From a virus (lineage: Duplodnaviria; Heunggongvirae; Uroviricota; Caudoviricetes), in the IMG/VR virus record IMGVR_UViG_2648501797_000002, positions 1 through 44,776 of that record: DNA of 44,776 nucleotides. The stretch is one strand, 5' to 3'. The position numbers were made by a program, and so were the translations under genes. The notes beneath the pieces are model-generated. The model saw only the letters and a program-made list of their open reading frames with translations. It did not search any database and was not told where the DNA came from. Shown here in pieces: positions 3,600 to 8,343 of the stretch (positions are counted from its first letter, which is position 1; each line of letters starts with the position of its first letter).

Positions 3600-4571
3600 T
3601 CAGTAACTGATACCGGTATGGGGAATGCGGCCGTCTTTAACCGCTGTAAGCACCTCGATAGCCTGATCCCGAGTAAGGCTGGTATTGGCCAGAAGAGCTT
3701 TGACGATTTCAGTGCCTACAGCTTTGCGGTGCTTAACGTCGGCTTCGCGGCGAGCCTGCTCATCGGCTTTACGTTTCTCCTCAGCCAGGCGGGCCTGTTC
3801 GCGTTGCTCTGCCTCGCGGCGGATGCGATCGGCTTCTTCCTGAGCTTTGCGGCGCTCCGCTTCGATAGCGGCCAGCTTGTCAGCCTCAGCTTTCTTCTCG
3901 GCTGCAATGCGATCTCGCTCTGCCTGCTCAGCTTGTGCTTTCAACACAGCTTCGCGATGCGCCGCTTCTTCACGTTCACGCTGTGCGCGCTGCTCAACTT
4001 CTCGGGCTGCTGCGGCGGCTGCCATTCGCTTAATTTCTTCTTCATGGGCAATGCGCTGGCGCTCAGCCTCAGCTGCTTTATCCGCCTGCTCTCGGTCGAA
4101 AGCGTCATTCATCAGCATGGCCATTTCGTGGTCAGACTCAATCCGAGCTGCCAGCTGCCGATCGAACTCTTCATTCATGGCCAGTGCTTCGACGTGAAGG
4201 GCGTTCATGGCTTCTTCGGCCTTAATGCGTTCCTGCTCCGCCTCCCATTCGGTCAACGGGCGACGCACTTCATCTTTCAGTGCATCGAGACGCTCACGGA
4301 CAACGCGGCGGCTTTCATCAATCTGCTTTGGCAGCGTCTTCAGCTCAGCGACCAGGGCTTTACCTGCGTTGTCGATGTAGGTTTTAGAGCGCGCGACCTT
4401 GTGAGCCATGGATGCGATAGCATCGCGGCCTTTTTTGGTGGTCACGTCCGGCACCAGACTGCGAGCCTCTTTTTCGATCGCTTCGATAAGCGGATCGAGT
4501 TGGTCGTTATTGGTGAAAACCGCCATCGCGTTCTTTTTCTCGATGACGACTAAATCCATTATTTCGCTCAT
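3600..4571 (-). CDS. Hypothetical Ala/Glu/Arg-rich coiled-coil protein
   Basis: 323-aa ORF with a long low-complexity charged helical region (AEQAERDRIAAEKKAEADKLAA...). Confidence 0.55.
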   Translation of the reverse strand: MSEIMDLVVIEKKNAMAVFTNNDQLDPLIEAIEKEARSLVPDVTTKKGRDAIASMAHKVARSKTYIDNAGKALVAELKTLPKQIDESRRVVRERLDALKDEVRRPLTEWEAEQERIKAEEAMNALHVEALAMNEEFDRQLAARIESDHEMAMLMNDAFDREQADKAAEAERQRIAHEEEIKRMAAAAAAREVEQRAQREREEAAHREAVLKAQAEQAERDRIAAEKKAEADKLAAIEAERRKAQEEADRIRREAEQREQARLAEEKRKADEQARREADVKHRKAVGTEIVKALLANTSLTRDQAIEVLTAVKDGRIPHTGISY

Positions 4572-4658: not shown

Positions 4659-4853
4659 TTAATGCGTCCCGGCTGGAACCAGATTCGGCAGCAGGTCGCG
4701 TGCCTCAAATGCTTTGCGAATGTGGCGCAGGTTGCCCTGTGGCTCGAACCAGAAGGTTTCTTTCAGGTAGTCACGTGAAACCTTCCAGGTGGCGCCAGTT
4801 TTAGCGTTACGCATCATCACGGCGCGTCCGCTGTTAGGAATTGAGTTAGCCAT
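4659..4853 (-). CDS. Hypothetical small early protein
   Basis: Start placed at the internal ATG (MANSIP...) overlapping the upstream small peptide stop. Confidence 0.4.
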   Translation of the reverse strand: MANSIPNSGRAVMMRNAKTGATWKVSRDYLKETFWFEPQGNLRHIRKAFEARDLLPNLVPAGTH

Positions 4854-4956
4854 TGAACCCCCCCGTAACGTGCAGAATTTTGATAACAACAGCCGACCAG
4901 ATAACGCCGCAGATCAGCAGGCAGTAAATCAGTGAACGAATGCCTTGTTTGCTCAT
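4846..4956 (-). CDS. Small hydrophobic peptide, 36 aa (MSKQGIRSLIYCLLICGVIWSAVVIKILHVTGGFNG)
   Basis: Hand-translated; single predicted transmembrane helix; ATGA overlap with upstream peptide; below ORF-track size cut-off. Confidence 0.3.
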   Translation of the reverse strand: MSKQGIRSLIYCLLICGVIWSAVVIKILHVTGGFNG

Positions 4957-5060
4957 TTTCCACCCCAGCACTGAATGCTAACTACGAGGACTGCAACCAA
5001 AAACGGAACGACCTTTAACCAAAAATTACGCCATGCAGGCTTGTCTTCTTCGCGGATCAT
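4953..5060 (-). CDS. Small hydrophobic peptide, 35 aa (MIREEDKPAWRNFWLKVVPFLVAVLVVSIQCWGGK)
   Basis: Hand-translated; first gene downstream of the OL region on the leftward strand; one transmembrane helix. Confidence 0.3.
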   Translation of the reverse strand: MIREEDKPAWRNFWLKVVPFLVAVLVVSIQCWGGK

Positions 5061-5144
5061 CTCTTCACCCTTGCCTTAAAGCCGGCCAGCTGAGCGTTGT
5101 TGCGATTACCCGGCGTTGCCGGTGTTGTTTGGATGAGGTAATAA

Positions 5145-5212
5145 TACTCCGGGTATTATTTTATATCAATACCGCTAGTATTATAATATTTAATAAAAAT
5201 ACTAAAGGTATG
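5145..5212. promoter_or_regulatory. OL-type operator cluster: three ATAC-N5-GTAT palindromes (5145-5157, 5170-5182, 5200-5212) in an AT-rich intergenic region
   Basis: Same half-site architecture as the two operators between cI and cro. Confidence 0.5.
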
Positions 5213-5281: not shown

Positions 5282-5485
5282 ATGTCAAATGAGGATGAGT
5301 TTTTCGCAGAAATGCACCCGCAGATAGCGCAGGTTATCGGGATAGCGGTTATGCAGCTGCTGGTTGAGAAGCGCGAGCCATCAAGAGAGGCGCTGATAGA
5401 GATGATTCAGGTGCTGTGGCAGGGTGACCAGGTAGATCTGGCAGTAGAGCTGGCACTGGATGTGCTGATGCTGAGGGAAGAGTAG
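5282..5485 (+). CDS. Small acidic hypothetical protein (67 aa)
   Basis: ATG with AGGGTGG RBS; transcribed rightward from the OL region, convergent with the downstream cassette. Confidence 0.45.
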   Translation: MSNEDEFFAEMHPQIAQVIGIAVMQLLVEKREPSREALIEMIQVLWQGDQVDLAVELALDVLMLREE

Positions 5486-5524
5486 GGCAGTAACAACCCG
5501 GCGCGGTGGCCGGGTTAACGTCTA

Positions 5525-6442
5525 CTACCAGTTCGGTAGCTCACGCAAAGAATACTTAGGCTTTCCATTACCTACCTGAGTGCAGAGGAATTTTGCAATA
5601 ACTTTTTCTCCGCGGTGATCGTTGATAATGTCTGGATTGTCTATGTAATTACTGATTTTCGCTACAAAAATTGATTTAGATTCATCATGCTCCATAATAA
5701 ACTCGCATTGACGTTTATGAGGAAGGGCTCCCAAGAAGCTAACTTCTAATAACTGCAAATCTTCTTTAACACTATCTTTACTTAGCTTGAGGACCGCTCT
5801 TTCAATATCATTGATATTGTTTGCAACAAGCGCTTGGTTGTTATGCCTTAAAGTAAAAGTTGCTTTGTTATCAAATAGTATTTGTATAAATCCACGTATT
5901 TTATCTAAAGCTCGGTCATCCAAATCACTAATCGCCTCAGCTAGACCATCATCGTCTCCCCTTATACTCATTTGCAGGATAGATTGAGTCTGGTTCAGAG
6001 CTTTTTGAACAGAAGATTCCTCATCAAAGTTAAGCGGGGCATCTGGCCTAAATTCCTCAAGTGTAAATCCAAAAGAACCTTTGGCTGTTCCAGTAATCAT
6101 AAGCAAATTATTTTCAAGATTTGGAATTTTACCTTTGGCCGGTAATTTCCCTGAAAATGAAGATGCAACATGAGAAACCGCATCATTAAAGGCGTTAACT
6201 ATTTTGGTTCCGAAATTTGCAGCTATGCCATATGTACCAAGTACAGGGGCTCCTCTAAATGTTAAAGTGGCTTTAACTGGCGGATGCTCATCGATAACAA
6301 TATGAGAAATCTCATCATTTAGCTCATGGAGCCTGCTTTCAAGGCTCATTTTGCCAATAATGTCATCATCAGTAGTGGTTTCTAAAAGAGACAGGATTGA
6401 GTCCCGCTCACTTAGAACGAACAAGTAATCGTCGCGATTCAT
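5525..6442 (-). CDS. Uncharacterized 305-aa protein, downstream partner of the NTase-fold gene
   Basis: AT-rich ORF, 4-nt overlap with the upstream gene; no motif recognised. Confidence 0.6.
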   Translation of the reverse strand: MNRDDYLFVLSERDSILSLLETTTDDDIIGKMSLESRLHELNDEISHIVIDEHPPVKATLTFRGAPVLGTYGIAANFGTKIVNAFNDAVSHVASSFSGKLPAKGKIPNLENNLLMITGTAKGSFGFTLEEFRPDAPLNFDEESSVQKALNQTQSILQMSIRGDDDGLAEAISDLDDRALDKIRGFIQILFDNKATFTLRHNNQALVANNINDIERAVLKLSKDSVKEDLQLLEVSFLGALPHKRQCEFIMEHDESKSIFVAKISNYIDNPDIINDHRGEKVIAKFLCTQVGNGKPKYSLRELPNW

Positions 6443-7026
6443 TGCTCACCTCCTTCTGATAGCATTGTTTCTAAAATGGTTAATGCCTGTTGATCCAGTG
6501 TAATATCTAGAGGAATCTGCAAGAATCCCTTCCATGTAAGATCCCTTCTATGAGACCACATACTGTACCAATATACAGTCCTTTCTACAAGCTGCTCCTT
6601 AGAAACGCCCAGTGACTGGAAGTAAGAATCAACTCTAAACTCTTGCTTTCTCCACTTACCCATATGTGGCACAAACAGATTCGGGTTACGCATAACGACA
6701 TCTTGCTGCGTTTCGTTAAACGCCAAATTAAAAAAAGTCACAACATCAATGTCATTTGGCGGACGTTTTTCAATGAGTTCAACATCTTCTATGAAACTAC
6801 CATCGATCCATTGAAAACCATCCGTTAACCCAGTTTTATTAATTTCTTTACGAAATTTGATGAAACCGAGTAAGATCTCGATCCTTTGTGGGCTTGTAGC
6901 GTACCGCTCTACAAATTTTAATATATCTGTCTTATATGGGGAGCGATAGGCGCTGGTTGGATGCTCCATATCCATTGGTGGGATTACACCAATTTCATTC
7001 CAGTTAGGAATTTCCTGAATCACCAT
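6439..7026 (-). CDS. Predicted nucleotidyltransferase-fold protein (195 aa)
   Basis: GS...DxD pattern (IDGSFIEDVELIEKRPPNDIDVV) consistent with a Pol-beta-type minimal nucleotidyltransferase; AT-rich. Confidence 0.5.
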   Translation of the reverse strand: MVIQEIPNWNEIGVIPPMDMEHPTSAYRSPYKTDILKFVERYATSPQRIEILLGFIKFRKEINKTGLTDGFQWIDGSFIEDVELIEKRPPNDIDVVTFFNLAFNETQQDVVMRNPNLFVPHMGKWRKQEFRVDSYFQSLGVSKEQLVERTVYWYSMWSHRRDLTWKGFLQIPLDITLDQQALTILETMLSEGGEQ

Positions 7027-7336: not shown

Positions 7337-8047
7337 TCACACAAGCCTTAACTTAGTTTCTACGGCCACACCAATGATTCGACAGTTTCCGTTGATGGGA
7401 ACCAATGGCCATTGAGGGTTTAAGCCCTTCAGGTACTTCTGGTCACCATCAATGATCAGTTTTTTGAATGTCGCCTCGTTTGATTCCGAGAGTTTTGCAA
7501 TAACGAGACTTCCGTTGACCGGCTCCCTTCCGGTATCAAAAAGAACATATGTACCCTCTGGTATGCTGAGCCCGACCGGGGCAGTCATGGATTCCCCCTC
7601 GACCAACAACCAGAACGCATCCCCCTGGATGTGAGCGTCTGATTCGAGCCATAGATCGATATCTTTAAGTGCATACGGCTCGCACGCTTCCGACCAATGC
7701 CCAGCCTGAATCTTGCTTAATACAGGGTATTTAATGCCTGGGGTGTACTGGCCTACATACTTGGCATTCGATGTAGCGGCAGCACTCATTGCAGATATTT
7801 CTTTCGCAAGGCTGGGGCTAAAATCAGAGACATCCACCTGGAGGGCTCTGGCAAAAACAGCAGCCACGGCAGCATTAAGGGCATTCCTGCCATTCAAGTA
7901 ATGCCCAACGCCACCCTGAGATATGTCTAGCATGTCAGCTATTGATTGCTGTGTTATCCCAAGCTCTTTTTTCTTGGCTTCATAGAGGGCTTTCAGCCTT
8001 TCTGCGTCAGCGATCTGAGCCGATGTCAGTGTCTTTTTCTTTTCCAT
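7337..8047 (-). CDS. cI: CI-like prophage repressor (HTH plus S24 LexA-like autopeptidase domain)
   Basis: N-terminal HTH (ITQQSIADMLDISQGGVGHYLNG); C-terminal ESMTAP serine motif and FKKL lysine motif like lambda CI; start at ATG 8047, close to the operators. Confidence 0.85.
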   Translation of the reverse strand: MEKKKTLTSAQIADAERLKALYEAKKKELGITQQSIADMLDISQGGVGHYLNGRNALNAAVAAVFARALQVDVSDFSPSLAKEISAMSAAATSNAKYVGQYTPGIKYPVLSKIQAGHWSEACEPYALKDIDLWLESDAHIQGDAFWLLVEGESMTAPVGLSIPEGTYVLFDTGREPVNGSLVIAKLSESNEATFKKLIIDGDQKYLKGLNPQWPLVPINGNCRIIGVAVETKLRLV

Positions 8048-8082
8048 TTTCAAATAGTAATACCAATGCTCTTATTTTAAAA

Positions 8083-8119
8083 ATACTTGCGGTATTGCAA
8101 TGTTTAATACTTGTGGTAT
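8083..8119. promoter_or_regulatory. OR operators (ATACTTGCGGTAT and ATACTTGTGGTAT) overlapping the divergent cI and cro promoters
   Basis: Two 13-bp ATAC-N5-GTAT palindromes between the divergent cI and cro genes; candidate pR as TTGCAA-N17-TATTGT. Confidence 0.55.
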
Positions 8120-8151: not shown

Positions 8152-8343
8152 ATGAAAATTTCTTTAGCTGAATACGTTGACGAAGTTGGACAGGCAAGAG
8201 CTGCTGATGCCATCGGCGTTCACCAGACCGCAATTAGTAAAGCTATCCGGGTAGGACGGAAGATTTTCGTTAACACCCTGCCTGATGGAAAAATTAAGGC
8301 TGAAGAGATCAAGCCTTTCCCACATAACAGAAATCCTGATTAA
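8152..8343 (+). CDS. cro: Cro-like repressor
   Basis: 63-aa protein resembling lambda Cro (GVHQTAISKAIRVGRKIFV...AEEIKPFP); GGAG RBS. Confidence 0.85.
   Translation: MKISLAEYVDEVGQARAADAIGVHQTAISKAIRVGRKIFVNTLPDGKIKAEEIKPFPHNRNPD

Follow-up and report, generated by a model that had tools for sequence, protein, structure and literature searches.

In phage lambda, the leftward early operon runs from the promoter PL through N and further genes to cIII, kil, gam, bet and exo, with cIII overlapping kil by 32 nucleotides (nt). The cIII product is an amphipathic peptide and is not transmembrane. Division inhibitors that do span the membrane can be very short: Caulobacter SidA (29 residues) and gp56 of Bacillus phage SP01 pass the membrane once and block late divisome proteins, and proteins of this kind appear when the SOS response is induced or in the early phase of a phage infection. 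Here we describe two coupled small open reading frames (ORFs), ORF1 and ORF2, that open the leftward early operon of a Caudoviricetes virus (IMG/VR record IMGVR_UViG_2648501797_000002; 44,776 nt, the whole of which is referred to as the window). Each encodes a peptide predicted to cross the membrane once, and the pair is joined to a third gene in the position that kil occupies in lambda, here called the kil slot.

Two further groups of small membrane peptides serve as points of comparison. Type I toxins such as Hok, Ldr and TisB comprise 30–50 residues with one hydrophobic helix and are often carried on mobile elements (PMC12648545). MgtR and MgtS are single-helix inner-membrane peptides of about 30 residues that alter FtsH-dependent proteolysis (PMC12648545).

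Two coupled ORFs for predicted membrane peptides

The element consists of three overlapping ORFs on the minus strand:

4953..5060, minus strand: ORF1, 35 residues, translation MIREEDKPAWRNFWLKVVPFLVAVLVVSIQCWGGK followed by a stop codon; predicted single-pass membrane peptide
4846..4956, minus strand: ORF2, 36 residues, translation MSKQGIRSLIYCLLICGVIWSAVVIKILHVTGGFNG followed by a stop codon; predicted single-pass membrane peptide
4659..4853, minus strand: ORF3, 64 residues, the kil-slot gene (phrog_3722)

A sequence-only reading of the window had described ORF1 and ORF2 as two coupled frames of 35 and 36 residues, each with one predicted transmembrane helix, and its coordinates and translations proved exact. 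The stop codon of ORF1 and the start codon of ORF2 (ATG at 4956) share the bases ATGA, and the last codons of ORF2 overlap the start of ORF3 by 8 nt (ATGGCTAA). A purine-rich, Shine–Dalgarno-like run precedes each gene: AAGGGTGAAGAG before ORF1, GGGGTGG before ORF2 and GGGGGGG before ORF3. ORF1 opens with a charged and aromatic N-terminus, MIREEDKPAWRNFWLK, after which its hydrophobic helix follows. The maximal Kyte–Doolittle mean over 17 residues is 2.43 for ORF1 and 2.67 for ORF2, with one such stretch in each peptide, in agreement with the single predicted helix. Across the six frames of the window there are 92 ATG-started ORFs of 30–45 residues, and a hydropathy mean of at least 2.4 is reached only by ORF1 and ORF2, which are adjacent to each other. 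These results confirm that two small ORFs for predicted membrane peptides open the leftward operon.

Conservation of both frames

Conservation was assessed in two datasets, 80 viral contigs found via ORF3 (dataset 1) and 128 distinct loci found via ORF2 (dataset 2). In dataset 1, ORF1 occurs as 45 nucleotide alleles encoding 33 protein alleles and ORF2 as 42 nucleotide alleles encoding 34, and both frames are open in all of them. ORF1 varies in length (35, 36 or 38 residues); ORF2 is exactly 111 nt in every allele, without insertions or deletions. Dataset 2 gives the same picture: ORF2 is intact with exactly 36 codons at all 128 loci, and ORF1 is intact at 123; of the other five loci, one has it frameshifted, one truncated and one replaced, and two lack it. 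The frames that the sequence-only reading had picked out are therefore kept in related prophages. The ATGA and 8-nt junctions are retained in all intact alleles.

This retention persists over considerable divergence. Frame, length and hydrophobicity are preserved even where as many as 45% of the bases differ between alleles (at most 50 of 111), and protein alleles with identities down to 36–46% all contain the hydrophobic helix. The residues that never change are M-I-R-E, W10, F13, S28, C31 and G33 in ORF1, and M1, S2, G5, R7, S8, L9, W20, F34 and G36 in ORF2. For ORF1 in dataset 1, the ratio of nonsynonymous to synonymous substitution rates (dN/dS) is 0.41 in frame, against 1.17 and 0.73 out of frame, a pattern that indicates purifying selection; the value for ORF3 is 0.23. 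In ORF2, the least variable class of sites is the second codon position, which decides between hydrophobic and polar residues. When substitutions were placed at random in equal number, a divergent allele stayed intact and hydrophobic with a probability of P = 0.001 to 0.03 each.

Other frames do not account for this pattern. Antisense frames are closed in ORF2 for all alleles and are open in ORF1 for a minority only. In ORF2 the +2 frame, too, is free of stops in 41 of 42 alleles, but it was rejected as a coding frame: its dN/dS is 1.14, and because NUN codons make stops in it nearly impossible, its openness is a by-product of hydrophobic coding. Frames that are open in every distinct allele, one of which never varies in length, are more than chance would be expected to yield. 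Both ORFs are under selection, the substitution ratio of ORF2 being taken up below, and we infer from the alleles that they are genuine protein-coding genes and are translated.

An exchangeable kil slot downstream of the pair

At all 128 loci, ORF2 shares 8 nt with the gene that follows it, and this gene comes from one of three unrelated families. The first is that of the window's own 64-residue ORF3. The second is a KilR type of 68–74 residues, which matches phrog_294 ('Kil protein for bacterial septation inhibition'; E = 5e-34) and is 39% identical to KilR of the E. coli Rac prophage, annotated as an FtsZ inhibitor (E = 7e-16). The third is a Lambda_Kil type of 92–97 residues, which matches PF06301 above the curated cut-off (E = 1.8e-10). 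The slot after ORF2 is thus usually filled, in related phages, by homologues of Kil-type FtsZ inhibitors, whose translation is coupled to that of ORF2. What is new here, as judged from the collected loci, is a constant pair of predicted membrane peptides to which KilR, lambda-Kil or unassigned cassettes are attached interchangeably through an 8-nt overlap. Such an architecture belongs with the early-operon host-takeover modules of lambdoid phages and will not surprise a phage biologist.

ORF1 and ORF2 are themselves not Kil homologues: like ORF3, they have no match to Lambda_Kil or to the Kil families in PHROG. For ORF3, comparison of its profile with that of KilR gave an hhalign probability of 0.2%, that is, no detectable homology, and an AlphaFold2 model of its family shows a small beta-rich protein at low confidence (mean predicted local distance difference test score (pLDDT), 58.8). 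ORF3 is nevertheless, by position, a candidate third family of Kil-like proteins, because it lies in the slot that holds KilR or lambda-Kil genes in sister phages; judged by its slot, phrog_3722 may add another kind to the two known types of Kil. The kil slot thereby offers a starting point, based on position, from which this widespread family could be given a function.

The junctions appear to be points of exchange. ORF1 directly overlaps ORF2 at 109 of the 128 loci. At 14 others (including L008, L020, L021, L024, L030, L041, L051 and L077), a gene of 71–89 residues (MSKENNGGPAYP..., phrog_2201) lies between the two; it reuses the ATGA junction and opens with ORF2-like MSK or MSR codons, resembling a cassette inserted by recombination at the junction. 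The three genes, ORF1, ORF2 and the one in the slot, combine their allele types in many ways, and the parts recombine freely at the conserved junctions. This free assortment fits action on conserved host targets and argues against allele-specific binding among the three products.

Two copies of a shorter arrangement occur in Klebsiella sp. WOUb02, one on the chromosome and one on a 276-kb plasmid (loci L087 and L088). Both carry ORF2 with a KilR-type gene, no ORF1 and a separate G-rich Shine–Dalgarno sequence; they may represent remnants, or else a unit of two genes that has been mobilised on its own. As possible analogues of the pair in the reference phages, we considered YdaF and YdaG, a pair of small genes that follow the Rac repressor, and lambda orf28. 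The former are not hydrophobic, and the latter is acidic and not hydrophobic.

Promoter, operators and leader

The features that place the pair at the head of the leftward operon, together with the regulatory genes further right, are as follows:

5141..5169, minus strand: PL-like sigma-70 promoter, TTGATA-17-TATTAT, 10 of 12 matches in a consensus scan
5144-5156, 5169-5181 and 5199-5211, no strand assigned: OL, three operators, exact matches to an ATAC-N5-GTAT core
5061..5133, minus strand: 5′ leader of about 70 nt, read directly, starting CAUCCAAACAACA..., with a short CCGGC-AAC-GCCGG hairpin and the Shine–Dalgarno-like AAGGGUGAAGAG
7337-8053, minus strand: cI-like gene
8152-8343, plus strand: cro

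The OL region named in the sequence-only reading is real: three operators lie at 5144-5211, each an exact AATAC-N5-GTATT, and two of them (OL1 and OL2) overlap the PL promoter. The same ATAC-N5-GTAT motif recurs twice at 8083-8119, between the cI-like gene and cro, as OR. In this phage, ORF1 and ORF2 are the first genes downstream of PL and OL, and no separate promoter is predicted for them beyond PL; in about one-fifth of related loci, other small genes stand ahead of ORF1. In the sequence-only reading, the pair takes the position of lambda N. This description holds for the first position after PL, where lambda has N, ral, ea10 and other genes before cIII is reached; by gene order, however, the place is that of cIII (see below).

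Past ORF3, the operon continues with a gene for a 323-residue coiled-coil protein, gamL, bet, exo and a methylase gene, on to the excisionase gene, an order known from the annotated prophage of E. coli KFu024, which is 99.9% identical. The region has matches in 24 Klebsiella phage records and in 61 of 5,426 complete E. coli genomes, and is a lambdoid prophage type common in Klebsiella.

The leader, whose transcription start would lie where the −10 hexamer places it, has been conserved at many loci (CATCCAAACAACA..., followed by a short GC hairpin). It folds no better than shuffled sequences (z = 0.06), has no Rfam match and has no second copy in the window, and its two hairpin variants among the loci are not compensatory. 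The idea that it is a put- or nut-like RNA was dropped on these four grounds.

Proposed role of the pair

The following mechanism would be consistent with this arrangement. On loss of the CI-type repressor, PL would transcribe ORF1 and ORF2 at once. Ribosomes ending ORF1 would restart on ORF2 at the ATGA and then on the next gene at the 8-nt overlap, so that the three products would be made together. Each peptide would insert into the inner membrane as a single helix with the N-terminus in and the C-terminus out; positive charges lie towards the N-terminus, which makes a cytoplasmic location of this end probable, and only about 4–10 residues would protrude into the periplasm as a tail. ORF1 and ORF2 would then be the constant part of a three-gene early cassette, with a Kil-type division inhibitor in its exchangeable third slot. 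During lytic development the pair would act at the membrane on the host envelope or division machinery, complementing a cytoplasmic, FtsZ-directed Kil.

The reading we favour, tentatively and short of calling it probable, is that the pair shares a process with its neighbour gene and would interfere, from inside the membrane, with division of the host or growth of its envelope. The sequence-only reading had put forward host killing, division inhibition and superinfection exclusion as candidate functions. Constant coupling to a slot of the KilR or lambda-Kil type is circumstantial support for a division or envelope role. SidA and SP01 gp56 offer a precedent, as the kind of mechanism would be the same; the analogy is functional only, with no sequence relationship. 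A more specific version, which we regard as doubtful when taken as a whole, is that the pair forms the membrane arm of a two-part division or takeover cassette: it would bind transmembrane segments of divisome anchors, late-division proteins or FtsH/HflKC, the interchangeable Kil would hit FtsZ and ORF3 would belong to a third, unrecognised Kil-like family.

Several observations weigh against a division or envelope role, or against reading the pair as protein-coding at all. Rac kilR and lambda kil have no ORF1- or ORF2-like neighbours, and neither ORF stands ahead of the ORF3 homologues that Citrobacter phage Omnitron and Salmonella phage SW-37 carry. As Kil genes work without the pair, the linkage could reflect only a shared position after PL and recombination at the junctions; moreover, the sample of 128 loci is biased, because they were found through ORF3 or through close relatives of ORF2. 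The dN/dS of ORF2 is 0.81, barely distinct from an off-frame value, so the case for this gene rests on its conserved frame, length and hydrophobicity. The conserved C-terminus of each peptide coincides with the Shine–Dalgarno sequence and start codon of the next gene, and part of the conservation is thus at the DNA level. Finally, a literature search found no paper on the ORF1 or ORF2 peptides.

If the pair does act on the divisome or on FtsH, it would represent a compact new peptide-inhibitor pair against an essential process of the envelope in the priority pathogen Klebsiella, and a clear case of modular evolution in which a constant membrane part is combined with swappable Kil cassettes. 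If the peptides are inert, they would simply be two more conserved hypothetical phage genes.

Type I toxins share with ORF1 and ORF2 the small size and the single hydrophobic helix, at the hydropathy values given above. Unlike the pair, they are expressed from a promoter of their own behind a highly structured leader and come with an antisense RNA encoded in cis or in trans, whereas ORF1 and ORF2 lie inside the PL operon behind a leader of ordinary folding. No promoter-like site was found on the antisense strand within 4846-5060 by consensus scan, which is weak negative evidence, and no Rfam match was found.

Alternative explanations

An action on the membrane that has nothing to do with division would also be compatible with single-pass topology, which is predicted, and with very early expression from PL. 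ORF1 and ORF2 would then be early-lytic effectors that block the entry of superinfecting DNA or modulate a transporter, a sensor or the membrane potential, and their adjacency to kil would be incidental. The confinement of the family to Klebsiella- and Raoultella-type prophages suggests a host-specific membrane target, and both the free assortment of the pair with different kil types and the function of kil-slot genes elsewhere without it fit such a role. We nevertheless consider this unlikely. Linkage to the kil slot at 128 of 128 loci, including the overlapping start, goes beyond what a shared operon position requires, and no PADLOC defence model matches either peptide. One form of it, exclusion by the prophage in a lysogen, is unlikely because both genes are downstream of a repressed PL: proteins of the SieB or HK97 gp15 type are expressed in the lysogen independently of the early lytic promoters, whereas this pair stands behind a promoter covered by operators, so that classical prophage exclusion would not be possible.

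A functional replacement of lambda cIII is suggested by gene order. The pair would sit in the membrane, inhibit or occupy FtsH or HflKC, stabilise CII and so tune the choice between lysis and lysogeny. From PL the window reads ORF1, ORF2, kil-slot gene, 323-residue gene, gamL, bet and exo, which by synteny puts the pair in the place of cIII. As in lambda, a small PL-expressed gene lies directly upstream of the kil-position gene and overlaps it (here by 8 nt at every locus), with gam, bet and exo to follow. MgtR and MgtS show that small single-helix peptides can modulate FtsH-dependent degradation (PMC12648545) and would be the model for such a role; they differ in that their genes are chromosomal and under the control of Mg2+ signalling, and their sequences are unrelated. 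The window also encodes a lambda-type CII (PF05269, E = 9.5e-13), as well as a Q antiterminator. A tblastn search with lambda proteins (cIII from NC_001416) found no homologue of N, cIII or lambda Kil in the window, and none of N or cIII in the approximately 170 collected loci. For divergent relatives this is a weak negative, because the same search missed Pfam-confirmed Lambda_Kil homologues at loci L084 and L090.

Against this replacement, neither peptide is similar to cIII, and neither has a significant Pfam or NCBIfam match that would relate it to that family. Lambda cIII is a single amphipathic peptide of 54 residues without a transmembrane helix, whereas here there are two hydrophobic, single-helix peptides. 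The same pair is present in Klebsiella phage ST405-OXA48phi1.2, whose regulator is of the YdaT type and not of the lambda CII type, and many lambdoid phages lack a recognisable cIII anyway. On balance, we judge the replacement distinctly unlikely.

The peptides could also have no target at all, with the two short ORFs serving as translated spacers whose coupling sets a low dose of a toxic kil-slot product. Strict conservation of the ATGA and 8-nt overlaps, the coincidence of the C-terminal residues with the next gene's initiation signals and a dN/dS near 1 in ORF2 are all features that this would explain. A spacer, however, would not need to keep a hydrophobic helix, a length of exactly 36 codons or invariant W20, S28 and C31 despite divergence at up to 45% of bases. 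The purifying selection on ORF1 is likewise at odds with it, as is the fact that a gene of 71–89 residues can be inserted between ORF1 and ORF2 with both retained. We consider such a role very unlikely.

Finally, the two frames might be open by chance within a leader or spacer that is not translated, as the shortness of the ORFs, the omission of ORF1 from RefSeq and the lack of a family model would suggest. This reading has a negligible claim and is effectively refuted by the comparative data: frame, length, start codons and hydrophobicity are kept over more than 40 nucleotide alleles of each ORF, simulated neutral divergence rarely leaves the ORFs intact and no other small ORF in the window is strongly hydrophobic.

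Annotation and distribution

Although the ORFs already exist as database entries, they have no family, name or literature. RefSeq omits ORF1 from E. coli KFu024. The Prokaryotic Genome Annotation Pipeline (PGAP) used for RefSeq calls ORF2 as a protein of 41 residues from a GTG at 4971, 15 nt upstream. This GTG is present in some alleles only; the sole start common to all ORF2 alleles is the ATG at 4956, and RefSeq probably mis-starts the gene. Small phage membrane proteins are routinely missed, and the handling of ORF1 and ORF2 is an instance. Records of the phages Mulock and GZ7 label ORF1 as a '(putative) membrane protein'; the exact peptide sequences in public collections are entered as 'hypothetical protein', with one entry as 'membrane protein'.

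Searches of ORF1, ORF2 and several divergent alleles of them returned no significant match in Pfam, NCBIfam, PHROG or PADLOC. A match of UL2 to ORF2 (E = 0.013, below the cut-off) was rejected as spurious hydrophobic similarity. A profile search with the 41-residue form of ORF2 retrieved 246 clusters, all 'hypothetical protein' and all from Klebsiella and Raoultella, and a search of ORF1 against 1.84 billion representatives retrieved 7 clusters at 50% identity, all of them close relatives. ORF2 is carried by 4 species-representative genomes and by 362 IMG/VR stretches. These searches point to a real, uncharacterised family that is abundant in Klebsiella prophages and narrow in range (Klebsiella and Raoultella, with some E. 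coli).

Neighbouring genes

Three further features of the window lie close to the pair:

3600-4571, minus strand: 323-residue protein with a long coiled coil rich in Ala, Glu and Arg, phrog_1376
5282-5485, plus strand: 67-residue, very acidic protein, phrog_3946
5525-7026, minus strand: two overlapping genes between cI and OL, in the position of lambda rexAB

The 323-residue protein is encoded between the kil slot and gamL; it has no Pfam match, and its gene is conserved in Klebsiella phages. The 67-residue protein is encoded divergently from PL. Its promoter-like sequence (TTTATA-16-TATAAT at 5160-5187, plus strand) overlaps OL2, and it would therefore also be controlled by the repressor. At its other end, this gene converges on the genes at 5525-7026 at a GC-rich hairpin near 5490-5520 (AACCCGGCCACCGCGCCGGGTT). 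Of these two genes, one encodes an overlapping 305-residue protein with no family, and the other a DUF6932 protein (PF22014, E = 6e-29) that also matches the PADLOC candidate PDC-M63A (E = 2.7e-11). Together they look like a candidate defence pair carried by the prophage.

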